The notes under the pieces are model-generated. The model did no database searches. It saw only the letters and a program-made list of their open reading frames with translations, and had not been told where the DNA came from. Positions 4,210-31,521 of a stretch of 64,000 nucleotides of DNA are shown here, piece after piece. Position 1 is the stretch's first letter. Every line of letters begins with the position of its first letter. A program made the position numbers and the translations under genes. This stretch comes from Chitinophagaceae bacterium. Its GTDB lineage: Bacteria; Bacteroidota; Bacteroidia; Chitinophagales; Chitinophagaceae. The DNA is taken from contig JADLCD010000107.1 in NCBI GenBank assembly GCA_020847395.1, forward strand, positions 1,108 through 65,107. The letters run 5' to 3'.

Positions 4210-4704
4210 GTGTTGATTTCTGAAAAAAATGTTAATTACTGGTTGGATTGTTTCCAATATCTTTCTGCCTTATTAATCCACGCACTTATGTACATAGCAC
4301 ATACTATGTTGACTACTGCAAGTCCTGAAAAAATCTGGAAAATCTGGACTGATGTAAATAACTGGAAAAAATGGGATGTAGGATTGCGTAGTGCCAGGAT
4401 TAAAGATTCTTTCAAAAAAAATGTTCATGGTGTAATTGTACCGGAGCGTGGCCCTAAAGCAGGTTTTAAAGTTGCCGCCTGCGATCCAAATTTTTCTTAT
4501 ACTGTTATTGCAAAATTTCCTTTTGCTGCTTTTCATATACATCGATTTTTAGGTTACGATAACAGTAAAACAACTTTCACACATGAAATATGGGCAGAAG
4601 GCCCGTTAGCATGGGTTTGGTGGAATGTGTTTGGAAAAAGAATCAGCAAGATGATGCCCACAACCATGAGCAATGTTAAGGCGCTTGCAGAAACAGATAT
4701 GTAA
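4210..4704 (+). CDS. SRPBCC (START/Bet v1-like, polyketide cyclase/dehydrase-type) family protein
   Basis: The core TASPEKIWKIWTDVNNWKKWDVGL is typical of SRPBCC proteins. The real start is probably an internal Met at 4288 or 4306, because the first 26-32 codons look non-native. Confidence 0.65.
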   Translation: MLISEKNVNYWLDCFQYLSALLIHALMYIAHTMLTTASPEKIWKIWTDVNNWKKWDVGLRSARIKDSFKKNVHGVIVPERGPKAGFKVAACDPNFSYTVIAKFPFAAFHIHRFLGYDNSKTTFTHEIWAEGPLAWVWWNVFGKRISKMMPTTMSNVKALAETDM

Positions 4705-4710
4705 CCCGGA

Positions 4711-6030
4711 TTATAAATCCCAGTAAACAACCTCTTCTAAAAAAAGTTCATACACTTCTTTCCATCCGGTAAACATTTTGTCGTTGCCGAAAAAATTGTT
4801 GTGCCAGATAGTGATCATTGTACCACTCACTTTCTTTATCGTGTCGTGGTATTTTTTTATTTCAGCGAATGCCTGGTGTGGGGCAAGTTTTTGTTCATAA
4901 TAGGCGTTGGCATCCATAAAACAAAAAGGATAGATAAGCAGTGATGTTTTTTCTTCCGCGGCAAGATCATACCAATAAAACGGTGACGCAACAGATGCCC
5001 TGAATCCATTAATGCTTCCATAGCCCATTGAAAATTCATTGTGGATGCCCTGTTCAATAAGTTTTCGGTAAGTGTCGGGAAAATTCATGCGGATATAATG
5101 TTGCCTGCTATGCACAACTTTTCGCTCAATTATATTTTCCATTGTTTTTATCTCATCATGCAGCAATACATCATTATCACCGCTTTGCCAGGAAGGATGT
5201 ATGCCCACATTATAACCAATGGAATGATATTTTATCAGCTCCTGCATTTCCGGGTTTGAAGGATCAATATTTTTATCATACTCACCCGGTGAAGCAGCTA
5301 CAAGAAAAAAATAATACGGACGGAGATTATATTTAAGGTGAAGCGCATATAACCATTCATAAGTATCAAAAGGATCATCTTTTTTACCGGCAATCACTTC
5401 GAAGCGATCTTTAATTTCTCCAATTTCTCCTTTCAGCAGGGAACGCATGGCGCCCCCGGCATTTCTTACAGCGCCTTTGTGCAGGTAAGAAAATGCGATA
5501 TCAATATCGTATGTAGGGATAAACCTGAATTTGTTTATCGCAAATAACAGAAAGGGAAACCGCGATTGCAAAACAATCTGAAAATCTTTCAGCCAGTAAT
5601 TAATAAACGGCTCGTCTAAAAAAGATTCTTTAAAAGCAATACTTTCTGTGTGTGCAAAGCGCCCGTATGCATCTTTTTGATGCGGCAAATATTCTTCGTA
5701 GCGGGAAAGTAAATAGAAGGAGGCCGCGAAAATATCAAATGAAAAATCACCTTGCTTAGAGGGAAAAAGTATTTTATAATAGTTGTGCGCTTTTATAGGA
5801 ACGTTGATTGCTTTTATATCATTTTCAAAAAGCAGGGAAGAAGATGGTACTATATGAAATTCATCTTCTGATATGTGGTTGAATGAGTAATTAATTTTAG
5901 CGCCATCAAAGCTGTTGAATTCTTCTGTGCTGCTGGTATAAAAAACCTCAACACCGCTGAAGTCGTGCAATAAAGTGCCGGCTATGTATTTTAGTCTTGA
6001 ACTTATTTCTGTTGAATAAATCAGCAACAT
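4711..6030 (-). CDS. Conserved Bacteroidota protein, polysaccharide deacetylase-like (DUF7033-type N-terminus). The family call is from memory.
   Basis: 439-aa ORF with good coding character. The N-terminus (MLLIYSTEISSRLKYI) and the later HPSW/HYIR segments resemble the deacetylase-like family. Not verified by search. Confidence 0.5.
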   Translation of the reverse strand: MLLIYSTEISSRLKYIAGTLLHDFSGVEVFYTSSTEEFNSFDGAKINYSFNHISEDEFHIVPSSSLLFENDIKAINVPIKAHNYYKILFPSKQGDFSFDIFAASFYLLSRYEEYLPHQKDAYGRFAHTESIAFKESFLDEPFINYWLKDFQIVLQSRFPFLLFAINKFRFIPTYDIDIAFSYLHKGAVRNAGGAMRSLLKGEIGEIKDRFEVIAGKKDDPFDTYEWLYALHLKYNLRPYYFFLVAASPGEYDKNIDPSNPEMQELIKYHSIGYNVGIHPSWQSGDNDVLLHDEIKTMENIIERKVVHSRQHYIRMNFPDTYRKLIEQGIHNEFSMGYGSINGFRASVASPFYWYDLAAEEKTSLLIYPFCFMDANAYYEQKLAPHQAFAEIKKYHDTIKKVSGTMITIWHNNFFGNDKMFTGWKEVYELFLEEVVYWDL

Positions 6031-6132: not shown

Positions 6133-6205
6133 TTTCACGCAGCAATAACAGCGGAGCATCGGCTATCTTTGCGCCTTTGCTTCCTTATCTTCCCTTTGCG
6201 TGAAA
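6133..6205. repeat. Palindromic intergenic element, family 1 (termini TTTCACGCA / TGCGTGAAA)
   Basis: The 9-bp terminal inverted repeat has the same termini as the elements at 16561, 29097 and 28658. It starts 5 nt after the stop of the DUF3109 gene. Confidence 0.55.
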
Positions 6206-14018: not shown

Positions 14019-14564
14019 TCAGGAGAAATACAGTTTTGCTTCCCTGATCCGTCGATTTAATAAAATGGGTTTTCCACCTGCGTTCTTCCACATCTTAAAG
14101 GCATCAGTAATTTTTATATCGGCCGGATTTTTATTTACAAGTTTTAGCACAGTACTTTTTTTAAATGCATTTACACCAATATTATAAGTGAGGCTTACAA
14201 GCGCGTCAAATTGATTTTGGTTAATGTCATCACGGGTATTGCTCCATACTGTTTTCTCATACAAGCTGAGGATGTTTAAAAAAAGAGAAAGTGCCCTGTC
14301 TTTAGAGATAGGGGGATCACTTAATTTTACTCTTACTCCATTTTCATAATAAGTATTGCCGAAACCAATAGTAGGCACGCCAACAGAGTCGAGGTAAGGT
14401 TTTAAAATGCAACCTTCTTCTTTGCCAATAAAAGCTAATCCTGTTTTGCTAAGATGCTGAACTTCAGTAAGAGAAGGAAGTGTTCTTATAACGCTTTTTG
14501 CAAGACTGCCGGAGAGAGATCTTTTACTATTGCTCCGTTTAATTTGTCTTTTTGCTTTTGCCAT
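14019..14564 (-). CDS. GH24 (phage T4/lambda-type) lysozyme with a basic N-terminal extension
   Basis: The core GLAFIGKEEGCILKPYLDSVGVPTIGFGNT carries the catalytic Glu-Asp-Thr pattern of GH24. It also has ...QFDALVSLTYNIG. The N-terminal 30 aa are Lys/Arg/Ser-rich, with no signal peptide. Confidence 0.8.
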   Translation of the reverse strand: MAKAKRQIKRSNSKRSLSGSLAKSVIRTLPSLTEVQHLSKTGLAFIGKEEGCILKPYLDSVGVPTIGFGNTYYENGVRVKLSDPPISKDRALSLFLNILSLYEKTVWSNTRDDINQNQFDALVSLTYNIGVNAFKKSTVLKLVNKNPADIKITDAFKMWKNAGGKPILLNRRIREAKLYFS

Positions 14565-16560: not shown

Positions 16561-16642
16561 TTTCACGCGGCGTACGCAACGGGGTAAAGCCCGCAAAGAA
16601 GCATTCGTTGCTAACGCTGCTCCGCTGTGAACGCTGCGTGAA
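16561..16642. repeat. Palindromic intergenic element, family 1 (TTTCACGCGGCG ... CGCTGCGTGAA)
   Basis: The termini match the 29097 copy (TTTCACGCGGCG.ACGCAACGG). The internal GCAACG/CGTTGC pairing is present. It lies downstream of the carB terminator. Confidence 0.55.
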
Positions 16643-16679
16643 GATTATCGATGAATACCGGAAAGAATGTATAAAAATA

Positions 16680-27556: not shown

Positions 27557-28651
27557 TTATTTACCCGTTTTTGTATCAAAATCCGTTGAATGCGCCGGCC
27601 CGGGAATGGCAGCCAGGTTCACATTCGGCTTGTTCACCTCACTTACACTGTGAATATCCATCAATAATTTTGGTTGTCTTCCATTCATCACTTTGCTGAA
27701 TGTTTCATCCGGCATTTTTAAACCTACATAGTGTCCCTGTGATATTACAGAATGCCTGTTTACATTAACCGGCCCTTCTATCGTCCAGTCTTTAATATCT
27801 TTTCTTTCAAAGCGACAGGTGTTGCAGATCCATTCTTCCACCTCACCCCATTGATCTTTGCGGGCAGTAACACGCAATACTTCATCTCCTCTCATCCACA
27901 AGTGTACTTTACCGCTGCATTTATCGCATTTGCATGATGCGTTTACCGGTTTGGTAAACCACACACGATTTTTAAAACGGAAAGTTTTATCTGTTAATGC
28001 ACCAACCGGGCAAACATCAATTACGTTTCCTATAAAATCATTATCCAGCGCTTTCTCTATATAAGTAGCTATCTCAGCATGATCACCCCTGTCGAGCACA
28101 CCATGTACTCTTTTGTTAGTAAGCTGTTCTGCAACAAATACGCAACGATAGCAAAGTATGCATCTTGTCATGTGCAGTTGAATATAGGGACCGAGGTCGT
28201 GTTTTTTAAAGGTTCTTTTGGCAAATTCAAACCGTGTGCCTTCCTTGCCATGCTCATAGCTTAGATCCTGCAGGTGACATTCTCCGGCCTGGTCGCAGAT
28301 AGGACAATCAAGCGGATGATTGATCAAAAGAAATTCTACTACACCGGCCCTGGCATCCTGCACTTTTTCACTCGTAATATTTTTTACGATCATGCCATCC
28401 ATCACATTCGTTCTGCATGATGCTACCAACTTTGGCATTGGTCGCGGGTCAGCAGTTGAGCCTGCAGCTACTTCTACCAGGCAGGTGCGGCACTTACCAC
28501 CACTGCCCTTGAGCTTGCTATAATAGCACATTGCCGGCGGTGTAACATCACCGCCTATCTGCCTTGCAGCATTCAGGATGCTTGTGCCCGGCTCCACTTC
28601 AACAGTTATGTTGTCGATAGTAACCTTGAATAATTTTTTTTCTTCAGCCAT
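27557..28651 (-). CDS. nuoG: NADH-quinone oxidoreductase subunit G, short form (2Fe-2S plus 4Fe-4S domains, no molybdopterin-like domain)
   Basis: N-terminal 2Fe-2S ferredoxin (CYYS...CRTC), HPLDCPICDQAGECHLQD, CILCYRC and VCPVGAL cluster motifs. It ends after a CKCDKC...CNTC Cys-rich segment at 364 aa. Confidence 0.8.
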   Translation of the reverse strand: MAEEKKLFKVTIDNITVEVEPGTSILNAARQIGGDVTPPAMCYYSKLKGSGGKCRTCLVEVAAGSTADPRPMPKLVASCRTNVMDGMIVKNITSEKVQDARAGVVEFLLINHPLDCPICDQAGECHLQDLSYEHGKEGTRFEFAKRTFKKHDLGPYIQLHMTRCILCYRCVFVAEQLTNKRVHGVLDRGDHAEIATYIEKALDNDFIGNVIDVCPVGALTDKTFRFKNRVWFTKPVNASCKCDKCSGKVHLWMRGDEVLRVTARKDQWGEVEEWICNTCRFERKDIKDWTIEGPVNVNRHSVISQGHYVGLKMPDETFSKVMNGRQPKLLMDIHSVSEVNKPNVNLAAIPGPAHSTDFDTKTGK

Positions 28652-28657
28652 AATATT

Positions 28658-28698
28658 TTTCAGGCGGCGAACGCAACGAATCAGCGACGCAGCGTTTT
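28658..28698. repeat. Half copy of the family 1 element (direct repeat of 29097-29139)
   Basis: TTTCAGGCGGCGAACGCAACGAATCAGCGACGCAGCGTTTT versus TTTCACGCGGCGAACGCAACGGTGCAGCGACGCCGCGAATTTT. They are identical at 32 of the first 37 positions and in the same orientation. The half copy overlaps the stop of the GxxExxY gene and lies 6 nt upstream of the nuoG start. Confidence 0.6.
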
Positions 28699-29074
28699 AT
28701 AATTTATTTGCTATTCTGTGTATACCATCTTTCATTAGCACTATATTAAAATTAATCAGTAATCCAAGCTTTAAACCCGACAATTTCAAATAGGTTAATA
28801 CCTGTTTAAAATGGATATCAGCTACGGCTTCTATACTTTTAATTTCAACAATTACTTTATTTTCAATGATCACATCTGCCCTGAACCCTATTTCCAACTT
28901 TACTTCTTCGTGAACAAGCGGAATTGCTTGTTGCCTTTTAAAGAAAACTCCTGTTTTACTTAATTCATAACAGAAAATTTCTTCGTATACACTTTCAAAA
29001 AGTCCTGGACCATATTTCCTATGGATCCTGAATGCTATATCAAGAACTAAGGTGGCAATTTCATTTTCGGTCAT
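28697..29074 (-). CDS. GxxExxY family protein (PD-(D/E)XK nuclease-like fold, function unknown)
   Basis: 125 aa with the motif GPGLFESVYEE (G-x-x-E-x-x-Y), then the D...E.K-type core (ADVIIENKVIVEIKS) and the ending ...GLLINFN....DGI.R. It is inserted between nuoF and nuoG. Confidence 0.8.
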   Translation of the reverse strand: MTENEIATLVLDIAFRIHRKYGPGLFESVYEEIFCYELSKTGVFFKRQQAIPLVHEEVKLEIGFRADVIIENKVIVEIKSIEAVADIHFKQVLTYLKLSGLKLGLLINFNIVLMKDGIHRIANKL

Positions 29075-29096
29075 AGGTTAGCTATTTATTATTTTA

Positions 29097-29182
29097 TTTC
29101 ACGCGGCGAACGCAACGGTGCAGCGACGCCGCGAATTTTATCTCCCATTGCGTCGCCGCTCCTCCGCGAGCGCCGCGTGAAA
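29097..29182. repeat. Full 86-bp palindromic element, family 1
   Basis: 12-bp perfect termini TTTCACGCGGCG / CGCCGCGTGAAA. The inner pairing is GCAGCGACGC / GCGTCGCCGC (one mismatch). It sits between the nuoF stop (29191) and the GxxExxY start (29074). Confidence 0.65.
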
Positions 29183-29190
29183 CTCCCTCC

Positions 29191-30540
29191 CTACGCCACC
29201 ACCTCTCTTGCATCCGCATAATGCGCCAGGCCGTAATTCCTGCGCTGGCATTCTTCCGGGTTCAGCACATGCCATTCAAACTCATCCCGGAAATGACGGA
29301 TTGCCGCCGCAACAGGCCATGCCGCTGCATCACCCAAAGGACAAATGGTATTGCCTTCAATCTTGCGCTGTATATCCCATAACAAATCAATATCGCTCAT
29401 CTTTCCTTTGCCCGTGTCAATGTTCTTCAAAATCTTTTCCATCCAGCCTGTACCTTCACGACAGGGGCTGCATTGCCCGCAGCTTTCATGACGGTAAAAA
29501 CGGGCCAACGTATAGGTATGCTTCACCACGCACTGATCTTCATCAAATACAATAAAACCGCCACTGCCCATCATACTGCCTGTGGCAAAACCACCATCAC
29601 TCAGGCTTTCATAATTCATATACCTTGTTTCACCTTTAGCTGTTTTCAGCAAAAGATTAGCAGGTAAGATAGGCACAGATGCCCCCCCGGGTATGCAGGC
29701 TTTTAACCTTTTACCATTTGCAATACCTCCGCAATATTCATCACTGTAAATAAATTCTTCCACGCTGATGGTCATATCTATTTCATATACACCGGGCTTA
29801 TTGATATTGCCACAAGCGGAAATTAATTTTGTGCCGGTTGAGCGGCCTACACCGATCTTCGCATATTCTTCACCCCCAAGGTTTATAATAGGTACAACTG
29901 CAGCAAGTGTTTCCACATTATTCACCACCGTTGGGCGATCCCAAACACCCTTTACCGCAGGAAACGGAGGCTTGATGCGGGGATTACCTCTTTTGCCTTC
30001 CAGTGATTCAATCAATGCCGTTTCTTCACCGCAGATATACGCACCGGCGCCACGCTGCACATATATTTCGCAATCGAAACCGGAGCCTAAAATATTTTTT
30101 CCCAGAAAACCATTTGCTTTTGCTTCGGCAATAGCCTGCTCTAATATATCAGGAATCCAGGCATATTCGCCGCGGATGTAGATGTATGTTGCATTACTGC
30201 CCAACGCAAATGAACTGACAATTAAACCTTCAATCAACAAATGCGGAATGAATTCCATCAGGTAGCGATCCTTAAAAGTTCCCGGCTCACTTTCATCAGC
30301 ATTACATACCAGATGGCGTGGAATGCCTTCCGGCTTAGCAATGAAACTCCACTTCATGCCGGCAGGGAAGCCGGCACCGCCACGACCACGTAAACCGCTT
30401 TTCTTAACTTCTTCAACGATCGCTTCAGGCGTCATCTTCAAAGCTTTTTCCACCGCAGCATAGCCACCCTGTTTCCGGTATGTATCGTAGTAACGGATAC
30501 CTTCCACATGCGCATCTTTTAATAATAATTTTACTCCCAT
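29191..30540 (-). CDS. nuoF: NADH-quinone oxidoreductase subunit F
   Basis: FMN/NADH-binding motifs (GLRGRGGAGFP, ESEPG) and the 4Fe-4S motif ESCGQCSPCREG. The start is set at Met 30540, because the longer ORF (to 30627) would overlap the upstream gene that ends at 30576. Confidence 0.9.
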   Translation of the reverse strand: MGVKLLLKDAHVEGIRYYDTYRKQGGYAAVEKALKMTPEAIVEEVKKSGLRGRGGAGFPAGMKWSFIAKPEGIPRHLVCNADESEPGTFKDRYLMEFIPHLLIEGLIVSSFALGSNATYIYIRGEYAWIPDILEQAIAEAKANGFLGKNILGSGFDCEIYVQRGAGAYICGEETALIESLEGKRGNPRIKPPFPAVKGVWDRPTVVNNVETLAAVVPIINLGGEEYAKIGVGRSTGTKLISACGNINKPGVYEIDMTISVEEFIYSDEYCGGIANGKRLKACIPGGASVPILPANLLLKTAKGETRYMNYESLSDGGFATGSMMGSGGFIVFDEDQCVVKHTYTLARFYRHESCGQCSPCREGTGWMEKILKNIDTGKGKMSDIDLLWDIQRKIEGNTICPLGDAAAWPVAAAIRHFRDEFEWHVLNPEECQRRNYGLAHYADAREVVA

Positions 30541-30575
30541 ATTCTGATCAGCGATATTATTGCGATCGCTTAATT

Positions 30576-31016
30576 TTATTTTGGTTGTTCGGGCAATTTG
30601 GTAGCCTGCCTGGCTGCCAGTTGCCATTTGCCTTTTTTATTTTTTACCCAGAGCTGCAATACATGCAGCGCTATCTTAAATTCCTTACCGGTGTTCAATC
30701 CTTCTGCTACTCCGGTATATCGCACTGTTGCCCAATCTTTACCAATGGCTGCAACATAAAGGTTCTCTCTTTCTATTTTCTGATAAACAAGCTTTCCACT
30801 CTTGCAATCATTGATCACCTCATCTCTTGTTTGTACCCACCCTGTTGAATGCCCGAAATTTACATTATCAAACAGGAGTTCCTGCAAATCCTGGAAATTC
30901 TTTGCGATCAATGCATTCTCCAGTTTTGCAACGCTTTCCTTCACTACCACACTATCAGTTTGCGCATGCACAATTGCTGTTGTAAAGAACAATATTATGG
31001 CAAAAGCAAACCGCAT
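30576..31016 (-). CDS. Secreted NTF2-like / DUF4440 (SnoaL-like) family protein
   Basis: Signal peptide MRFAFAIILFFTTAIVHAQ, then a pattern typical of DUF4440 (..GHSTGWVQTRDEVI...ATVRY...LHVLQLWVKNKKGKWQLAARQATKL). The start at 31016 leaves 4 nt after the nuoE stop. Confidence 0.7.
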   Translation of the reverse strand: MRFAFAIILFFTTAIVHAQTDSVVVKESVAKLENALIAKNFQDLQELLFDNVNFGHSTGWVQTRDEVINDCKSGKLVYQKIERENLYVAAIGKDWATVRYTGVAEGLNTGKEFKIALHVLQLWVKNKKGKWQLAARQATKLPEQPK

Positions 31017-31020
31017 ATAC

Positions 31021-31521
31021 TTAGTTATTCGTTGCAGCATTCCTCCTGCATTCTTCAATAATCGCGTTTACTTTTTCTTTGGTAAGATGCTCTTTATAAT
31101 GCTTGCCCATCTGCATCATAGGTGCATACCCACAGGCGCCAAGGCACTCCACTGTTTTAAGGGTAAACAAACCATCACTGGTTGTTTCGCCCGGTTTAAT
31201 GCCCAATCTTTCACCTATATATGCTACAATATCATCGCTGCCTTTAATCATGCAGGGACCTGTCTGGCAAACCTCAAACATATATTTGCCCACCGGCTTT
31301 AAATTATACATGCTGTAAAAAGTAGCTACCTCATATACTTCAATCGGTTCAATCTTTAACAGTGATGCTACATAATCCATCGTTTCCGGGCTCAGCCAGC
31401 CGAATTGTTCCTGTGCCAGGTGCAATACAGGCAACAAGGCGCTTTTTTGCTTTCCTTCCGGGTAGCGGGCTATGATCTCATCTACCTTTTTTAATTTCTC
31501 TTCAGAAAACTCCATTTTCAA
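31021..31521 (-). CDS. nuoE: NADH-quinone oxidoreductase subunit E
   Basis: 166 aa thioredoxin-like 2Fe-2S subunit (CQTGPC ... CLGACGYAP). Confidence 0.9.
   Translation of the reverse strand: MKMEFSEEKLKKVDEIIARYPEGKQKSALLPVLHLAQEQFGWLSPETMDYVASLLKIEPIEVYEVATFYSMYNLKPVGKYMFEVCQTGPCMIKGSDDIVAYIGERLGIKPGETTSDGLFTLKTVECLGACGYAPMMQMGKHYKEHLTKEKVNAIIEECRRNAATNN

Follow-up and report, generated by a model that had tools for sequence, protein, structure and literature searches.

Background

The question raised by the locus described here is how a small gene for a nuclease-like protein came to lie between the arms of a hairpin-forming repeat inside the operon of respiratory complex I (nuo). The locus belongs to a 64,000-nt stretch of DNA from a Chitinophagaceae bacterium (GenBank assembly GCA_020847395.1, contig JADLCD010000107.1, positions 1,108 to 65,107 of the forward strand); this whole stretch is called the window below, and coordinates refer to it unless a compared locus is named. 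The initial annotation, made from the sequence alone, placed a co-oriented 125-aa gene of the GxxExxY family (motif GLFESVY) between nuoF and nuoG, and the gene is indeed there. We are inclined to believe, with moderate confidence, that the locus is a selfish cassette similar to the intervening sequences (IVS) of 23S rRNA: a small PD-(D/E)XK (GxxExxY) gene between the arms of a hairpin-forming repeat, located in the nuoF-nuoG spacer and co-oriented with the operon.

In Coxiella, the IVS is an inverted-repeat stem whose loop carries an S23p open reading frame (ORF), and RNase III excises it (PMC4990558). The GxxExxY gene family and the IVS concept are already known; what makes the locus valuable is the comparative picture of the cassettes found at one junction. 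We found no account in the literature of operon spacers that carry hairpin-bracketed GxxExxY or PF05635 cassettes, of such cassettes competing for a junction, or of the transfer in Niabella reported below.

Results

The cassette and its arms

The features on which the argument depends are the following; L with a number denotes a compared locus.

29191..30627, minus strand: nuoF (NADH dehydrogenase 51-kDa subunit), from the ORF list; its orthologues carry PF01512 and PF10589.
29150..29182, minus strand: left arm, the 5' arm in the transcript, which begins UUUCACGCGGCG; complementary to 29097-29129 (79%) and to 28658-28691 (74%).
29097..29129, minus strand: proximal right arm, which makes an 86-bp palindrome with the left arm and a 20-nt loop (29130-29149); an equivalent exists only in L001 and L002.
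28697..29074, minus strand: GxxExxY (PDDEXK_3) gene of 125 aa, matched by the family profiles; between nuoF and nuoG and co-oriented with them.
28658..28698, minus strand: distal right arm, or half element, the 3' arm that brackets the gene; it ends 6 nt before the nuoG start codon and has orthologous arms in L001, L002 and L006.
27557..28651, minus strand: nuoG in a short 364-aa form, from the ORF list; its orthologues carry PF13510, PF10588 and PF22117.

The identities of nuoF and nuoG in the window follow from the Pfam families recorded for their orthologues. The true start of nuoF is probably near residue 29-30 of the listed ORF, judging from the relatives, which align from about query residue 29. 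The GC content is 26-35% in the GxxExxY ORF, 67% in the arms and 42-55% in the nuo genes; the gene and its flanking repeats form a discrete, compositionally foreign inserted unit.

The complete palindromic element that the initial annotation described upstream of the gene was recovered at 29097-29182. With its 33-nt arms it folds, as minus-strand RNA, at -58.5 kcal/mol (z = -6.5), and none of 200 shuffles folds equally well. The direct copy of one half of the element, said to overlap the stop codon of the gene (TAA at 28697-28699), was likewise reproduced by alignment: 28658-28694 and 29097-29133 are identical at 32 of 37 positions, and the repeat extends to 51 nt (28651-28701 and 29090-29140) with 40/51 = 78% identity. 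The distal half can also pair with the far left arm, in a duplex of -49.3 kcal/mol; hence, the gene is enclosed by an inverted repeat. The 21-nt terminus of the element occurs three times in the window at no more than one mismatch, against 0.00 occurrences expected from 100 shuffles.

The initial annotation read the direct duplication as an insertion footprint, and this part did not hold. In L006, from the sister lineage, the order is left arm, gene, right arm, with a decayed remnant at the position of the proximal arm. Since L006 has this plain layout and no junction other than those of L001 and L002 shares the complete palindrome of the window, the direct repeat represents an additional right arm and not a target-site duplication. 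A search immediately outside the termini found no direct repeat at any occupied or solo junction. The layout with a left arm, the gene and a right arm, observed in L006, L003, L012, L032, L042, L046 and L081, is ancestral, and the upstream palindrome of the window and its two relatives is due to the additional proximal right arm.

One of these relatives, L002 (Agriterribacter sp.), has two tandem complete palindromes upstream of the gene (2796-2990), so the hairpin unit can duplicate locally.

The bracketing is general in Chitinophagaceae. At all 17 occupied GxxExxY junctions the upstream and downstream spacers pair, with duplexes of -26 to -77 kcal/mol. The termini of the junction cassettes are conserved as TTTC[A/T]CGC ... 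GCG[A/T]GAAA, and the inner arms differ, being of the GCGGCG/AGCG type or of the GCAAAG or GCAGAG type and often built of 8-9-nt tandem units. On average, pairing is stronger between the two arms of one cassette than between its left arm and right arms taken from the others (permutation p = 1e-4). Counting of compensatory changes on palindromes of the window type gave few covariations, since the sequence of the termini is itself conserved.

There are also indications at the level of the transcript. In 23 of the 28 cassettes the stem is more stable on the sense strand than on the antisense strand, the G.U pairs numbering 91 and 43, respectively (Wilcoxon p = 7e-5), and this asymmetry hints at selection on the transcript. 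A scan for sigma-70-like promoters and intrinsic terminators found none on the minus (coding) strand at the cassette.

A rho-independent terminator was considered for the hairpin and rejected: on the minus strand the hairpin is followed by AAAUAAAAU, an A-rich tract with no U-run, and the scan gave no terminator on this strand.

The nuoF-nuoG junction in Chitinophagaceae

The nuoF-nuoG gap was measured in 80 Chitinophagaceae species obtained by a scan of the genome collection with NuoF. The empty site that the initial annotation proposed to look for exists in most of the related species: about 41 junctions are empty, with a gap of 0-64 nt, and among them L029, L041 and L059 keep a lone AT-rich right-arm scar. 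An intact GxxExxY gene is present at 15 junctions and a degraded one at 3, these counts including the window and separately looked-up loci. Among the degraded copies, L004 has intact arms but has lost all of the gene except its last 35 codons, L037 carries a frameshift and L050 an interruption. The closest homologues of the window protein are from Terrimonas, Agriterribacter and other Chitinophagaceae, and each of the close homologues (at least 73% identity) for which the context was retrieved occupies the nuoF-nuoG junction.

The same junction accepts a different cassette. In L010 and L016 it contains a 127-aa gene of the 23S-rRNA-intervening-sequence-protein family PF05635 (E 1e-23 and 2e-20), and decayed PF05635 cassettes were found there in L020, L043, L053, L056 and L057. 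The inverted repeat around these cassettes is AT-rich and unrelated, TTCAAAAGTCAAAA.../...TTTTGACTTTTGAA. In a further four species (L030, L036, L048 and L067) a GC-rich solo hairpin stands at the junction alone, with the same termini as the GxxExxY cassettes and a folding energy of -26 to -51 kcal/mol. The occupancy is patchy, and the states are interleaved on the NuoF+NuoG tree.

Other inserts occur at this junction as well. A two-gene insert was observed in L070 (4363-5891), L071 (4351-6353) and L076 (3856-5550); it consists of an AbiLi/OLD-like AAA ATPase (PADLOC AbiLi, E 3e-17) and a partner of about 180 aa, and in L071 there is also a retropepsin-like ORF. In these three loci an anti-phage-type system appears to lie inside the complex I operon. 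In L007, an uncultured Terrimonas nested in the clade of the window, the junction has, in place of the GxxExxY cassette, a 289-aa ORF (4357-5300) that encodes a signal peptide and matches no Pfam family.

Transfer and descent

The divergence of the GxxExxY protein does not follow that of the host. For L032 and L042, both Niabella, the host distance is 0.03 and the protein distance 0.37, and the arms are unrelated; the respective distances are 0.09 and 0.36 for L005 and the window, and 0.13 and 0.46 for L078 and L081.

Niabella drilacis (L032) and N. aurantiaca (L034), both genomes being from cultured isolates, are the most telling pair. The 471-nt spacer is 99.4% identical in the two species, while the identity is 85% for nuoF and 87% for nuoG. 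The shared tract of 542 nt runs from 36 nt of nuoF through 35 nt of nuoG with 3 mismatches, against about 14% divergence outside (P ~1e-28). A near-identical tract within diverged flanks indicates that the cassette was recently gained, or replaced, as a whole by horizontal transfer, through recombination in the coding sequence on either side.

The clade of the window behaves differently from this pair. The window and L001 are 89% identical in the cassette and 85% in the flanks, and the ratio of nonsynonymous to synonymous substitution rates (dN/dS) of the GxxExxY gene is 0.06-0.21, i.e., the gene is under purifying selection. Since the identity of the cassette is close to that of the flanks and the repeats are retained, the cassette in this clade is old and vertically inherited, and the copy in the window is an old, fixed example. 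The initial annotation had mentioned an ancient fixed arrangement in which related genomes carry the gene at this position with no repeat flanks; the first half of this description applies to the clade of the window, and the second does not, since the repeats are retained there.

The encoded protein

The window protein matches the profile TIGR04256 (GxxExxY) with E 4e-37 and 127.1 bits (cutoff 35), and PF13366 (PDDEXK_3), its sole Pfam match, with E 5e-36 and 124 bits (cutoff 22); each match spans about 116/117 model positions. PDDEXK_3 was entered as a family of unknown function by Steczkiewicz et al. 2012 (PMC3424549). The signature G24-L-F-E27-S-V-Y30 is invariant across 14 junction homologues. 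Among the putative catalytic residues E27, D67 and E77-x-K79, the residues E27, D67 and K79 are invariant in the junction homologues, and E77 is conserved in at least 90% of them, with K in L006.

The AlphaFold2 model, of medium confidence (mean predicted local distance difference test, pLDDT, 68), has an alpha-alpha-beta-beta-beta-alpha-beta core, i.e., the order H-H-E-E-E-H-E. The top Foldseek matches of this model are all PD-(D/E)XK nucleases (Cas4 SSO0001, RecE, lambda-exonuclease-like), and all are weak (E >= 6e-3). By the model and the conserved residues, the window protein has the PD-(D/E)XK core fold with the D...(D/E)xK motif, and its nuclease activity is putative. A sequence search of PDB found no homologue of the GxxExxY protein, the PHROGs search gave one marginal Cas4-like match, and in PADLOC neither the GxxExxY nor the PF05635 proteins match a defence system. 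The family is large, with 16,645 clusters at 50% identity (E up to 0.001).

Some members of the family are about 275 aa long and have two tandem GxxExxY domains (hits P0121-P0127, P0133 and others). Many have N-terminal extensions of 20-60 aa; these may be arm sequence that is translated, as seen for L093 of Sphingomonas.

GxxExxY genes in other phyla

The plasmid collection yielded eight distant GxxExxY genes (in Bacteroides, Bernardetia, Sphingomonas, Treponema, Prevotella and Fusobacteria, together with Gemmatirosa and Persicobacter, whose records are unannotated or nearly so). The seven on annotated records that were open to checking all have the orientation of their neighbours, and each has flanking repeats close by. 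They are wedged, for instance, between the genes for adenine deaminase and mannose-1-phosphate guanylyltransferase, between radA and a gene for an FAD protein, and between fabD and fabG. Inverted repeats bracket the gene in Bacteroides (-60.5 against a shuffle mean of -18.8), Bernardetia (-34.9 against -12.8), Sphingomonas and Treponema. The Sphingomonas arms are TTTTCACGCGAAGGCGCG.../...CTTCGCGTGAA, and the ORF continues through the right arm. In Gemmatirosa a complete hairpin lies directly downstream of the gene. Thus, the association with repeats that the initial annotation proposed to test for other GxxExxY copies extends to other phyla; in view of the repeats beside the distant genes, the flanking repeats are a trait of the family, with the ORF-less hairpins far outnumbering the genes.

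In Prevotella nigrescens (NZ_CP082843.1, L252, 1160-2610) the gene is embedded in repeat arrays with 120-nt and 41-nt spacing; a downstream annotated 'hypothetical protein' (1877-2308) consists of three 120-nt tandem repeats.

Hairpins without a gene

Two further members of the element family are present in the window; neither is assigned to a strand.

16561..16645: solo (ORF-less) hairpin between carB and gdhA; its terminus has 1 mismatch, and it aligns with the other palindromes.
6133..6205: chimeric or degenerate solo element with the termini TTTCACGC...GCGTGAAA, between co-oriented DUF3109 and DUF7033 genes.

The first folds at -42 kcal/mol (z = -4.5). In the second, the left arm is of the GCGGCG type, the right arm is of the CTTTGCG type, and the inner arms do not pair; its sequence suggests that it may have arisen by recombination between elements of different arm types.

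Outside the genome collection, a metagenome scan with the GC-rich 15-mer TTTCACGCGGCGNNCGC returned mostly chance sites in high-GC contigs, and the only real solo palindromes among the matches listed are L160, L197 and L239. The arm motif TTTCACGCAAAGGCGC was found at 35 loci in IMG/VR (L094-L128), being widespread in GC-rich taxa far outside Chitinophagaceae; no GxxExxY ORF adjoins the motif at these 35 loci.

In GC-rich contigs with a viral classification (e.g., L125, L128 and L094), the motif in the form TTTCACGCAAAGGCGC(AAAGGCGC) occurs either as a solo hairpin or as a single arm.

Discussion

We presume the following course of events for the IVS-like cassette. It would have neither a promoter nor a terminator of its own and would be transcribed by read-through of the nuo operon. 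The arms would pair in the transcript, mainly as the upstream hairpin in the window and, in most relatives, as a long-range stem that loops the ORF out. Such a stem would resemble the ORF-bearing IVS of 23S rRNA, where RNase III cuts the stem and the function of the host RNA is kept; here it would probably limit the damage to nuoG expression and restrain or time the translation of the nuclease. Spread to new genomes would proceed by recombination in the conserved nuoF/nuoG flanks, possibly stimulated by a break made by the nuclease (homing). The solo hairpins would result from internal deletion of the ORF, with L004 and L020 as candidate intermediates.

Several observations weigh against this proposal and should be stated together. 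When the whole 561-nt spacer of the window is folded, the left arm goes into the proximal hairpin, which is the dominant local structure, and the distal arm is nearly unpaired; therefore, the picture of a looped-out ORF suits the relatives better than the window itself. The G.U asymmetry could partly come from strand composition, and many of the 28 cassettes are interrelated. Both the cleavage by RNase III and the read-through from nuo at the cassette are what we infer. The copies in Prevotella and Fusobacteria have direct, not inverted, flanking repeats. As for mobility, the Niabella event is the one unambiguous recent transfer among all locus pairs, and the co-conversion profiles of the discordant pairs (L032/L042, L002/L005 and L078/L081) reveal no raised divergence near the junction. 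Finally, long vertical persistence at dN/dS of about 0.1 is unlike a purely selfish element that does not move; it may reflect a benefit to the host or continuing activity.

The alternative that survives best, although we think it unlikely, reverses the roles of the gene and the hairpins. By analogy with REPINs (hairpins formed by pairs of repetitive extragenic palindromic, REP, sequences) and their REP-associated tyrosine transposases (RAYTs), the GxxExxY nuclease would be a trans-acting enzyme that creates, copies or maintains the solo hairpins; it would be vertically kept, selected and nearly single-copy, and the nuoF-nuoG junction would merely be its residence. The numbers agree with this: the gene is flanked by its own hairpin family with solo copies elsewhere, there are three elements per one GxxExxY gene in the 64 kb of the window, and in Gemmatirosa the hairpin is present in at least 79 copies on two megaplasmids, one of which has the gene at 3 places. 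Purifying selection and vertical descent in the clade of the window would also be natural for such an enzyme. According to the alignment, the terminus TTTCACGCGGCG is conserved across solo and gene-linked copies, as expected of a site recognised by a protein, and similar termini (TTCACGC...) stand beside GxxExxY genes in Sphingomonas, i.e., in another phylum. On the other hand, the GxxExxY protein has no features of an HUH/Y1 transposase, PDDEXK_3 being its only Pfam match. The type of arm follows the protein phylogeny only imperfectly; for example, the protein of L003 is close to that of the window, and its arms are of the GCAAAG type. The presence of an unrelated non-nuclease PF05635 gene with its own arms at the same junction is left unexplained.

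It is also tempting to consider a free-standing homing endonuclease; PD-(D/E)XK homing enzymes exist, e.g., I-Ssp6803I. In genomes that lack the cassette, the enzyme would cut the empty junction or a hairpin resident there and be copied in by double-strand-break repair ('intronless homing'), and the arms would only insulate expression. We assess this as rather improbable. It accounts well for the sporadic occurrence at one precise and highly conserved site, where all looked-up close homologues are found, as well as for the intact, degenerate and lost states, which are those of a homing cycle; the putative catalytic residues are conserved, and the flank tracts of about 35 nt carried along in the Niabella transfer resemble co-conversion. 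However, the same pattern arises when DNA that has been taken up simply recombines with its homologue in the conserved flanks, no nuclease is encoded by the PF05635 cassettes found at this site, and the spacers of the empty sites contain no obvious common target motif. Moreover, free-standing homing endonuclease genes typically reside in phages, and no GxxExxY relatives were found in the phage collection (tblastn) or in the IMG/VR protein scan.

The last explanation, that an ordinary accessory gene was acquired once in an ancestor and generic REP-like palindromes later colonised both new spacers, is very improbable and already largely refuted: it conforms to the solo family members in other intergenic spacers of the window and to the old, stable arrangement in its clade, but it predicts a complete hairpin in each spacer rather than a left arm upstream and a matching right arm downstream, as observed at 17 junctions with several arm types and in other phyla, and it is contradicted by the permutation of arm pairing, by the movement of the cassette with its arms as one 542-nt block, and by the unrelated cassettes carried by closely related hosts.

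We believe that the IVS-like cassette is of interest beyond this locus. The GxxExxY and PF05635 families are interchangeable occupants of one operon junction, each with its own hairpin arms. The intact, decaying and solo-hairpin states, together with one datable transfer between species, make a testable system in cultured Niabella, Terrimonas and Agriterribacter, which could answer how such cassettes move, whether the hairpin is a target of the nuclease, and how an essential respiratory operon tolerates a nuclease gene inside it. For annotators there is a caution that 'REP-like' hairpins in Bacteroidota may derive from coding cassettes.

Other observations in the window

The complex I operon was described in the initial annotation as otherwise tightly packed, which requires correction: a 160-aa DUF4440 (SnoaL-like) ORF with a signal-peptide-like N-terminus (30576-31058, minus strand) is located between nuoE and nuoF. 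The nuoE-nuoF junction varies in relatives, with DUF4440 in L001 and L002, a 68-aa ORF and a glyoxalase gene in Lacibacter (L084), and nothing in L085; therefore, this junction is a second slot for accessory genes in the operon. The Rfam search of the window, at both gathering and permissive thresholds, found no rRNA or other relevant RNA family. A 181-aa ORF at 14019-14564 on the minus strand (…GFGNTYYENG…) resembles, as judged by eye, a phage-type lysozyme.

Comparison with known systems

Free-standing homing endonuclease genes share with the cassette the small nuclease gene at one precise site between conserved genes, the patchy and decayed copies, and one recent transfer with short flank tracts, namely the L032/L034 tract. 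They differ in that the cassette is not phage-borne, has hairpin arms and shares its site with a non-nuclease cassette; cleavage of a target by the GxxExxY protein is putative.

Among co-transcribed hairpins similar to miniature inverted-repeat transposable elements (MITEs) are the Correia elements or NEMIS (Neisseria miniature insertion sequences), the enterobacterial repetitive intergenic consensus (ERIC) and the Rickettsia palindromic elements (RPE); the Correia elements are substrates of RNase III. The solo hairpins described here are like them in being short palindromic intergenic repeats inside operons that are not terminators. They are unlike them in that no target-site duplication is seen, no partner of the transposase type is known, and a coding version of the element exists.

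With REPINs and RAYTs there is a common pattern of hairpin repeats that are dispersed in intergenic regions and outnumber a small, selected, vertically inherited gene flanked by cognate repeats. The difference is that RAYTs are HUH/Y1 proteins similar to the TnpA of IS200/IS605, while GxxExxY belongs to PD-(D/E)XK; in addition, the GxxExxY cassettes are exchanged between species, and a role of the GxxExxY protein in hairpin mobility is hypothetical.

The closest parallel is with the IVS of 23S rRNA in Coxiella, Leptospira and Brucella. In both cases an ORF of about 120-130 aa lies in the loop of an inverted-repeat stem, within a host transcript and co-oriented with it. The IVS, too, have a sporadic distribution that suggests horizontal transfer, decay of the ORF (PMC4990558) and short tandem repeats within the arms. 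The IVS protein family PF05635 itself occupies the nuoF-nuoG junction in other Chitinophagaceae, and this ties the IVS and the GxxExxY cassettes together. The element of the window is nevertheless different: it is located in an operon spacer rather than in helix 25 or 45 of 23S rRNA, and its ORF encodes a PF13366 protein of the PD-(D/E)XK type rather than the S23p/PF05635 four-helix bundle. The extra arm makes a local hairpin rather than a bracket, and excision of the cassette by RNase III is hypothetical.

A broader generalisation is conceivable, in which we place little confidence. A single widespread and hitherto undescribed class of mobile cassettes with hairpin arms, residing in rRNA genes as well as in operon spacers, might have as its coding cores the GxxExxY nucleases and, in parallel, the four-helix-bundle proteins of the 23S rRNA IVS. 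The conserved hairpin terminus (TTCACGC...GCGTGAA) would be what the nuclease recognises, and the nuclease would be responsible for the site-specific homing of the cassette as well as for the spread of the much more numerous ORF-less hairpins; it would thus be a PD-(D/E)XK counterpart of the RAYT-REPIN system. The origin and mobility of the ORF-bearing IVS of 23S rRNA have been open questions since the 1990s (PMC4990558), and a common cassette class, if true, would explain what these elements are and how they move.

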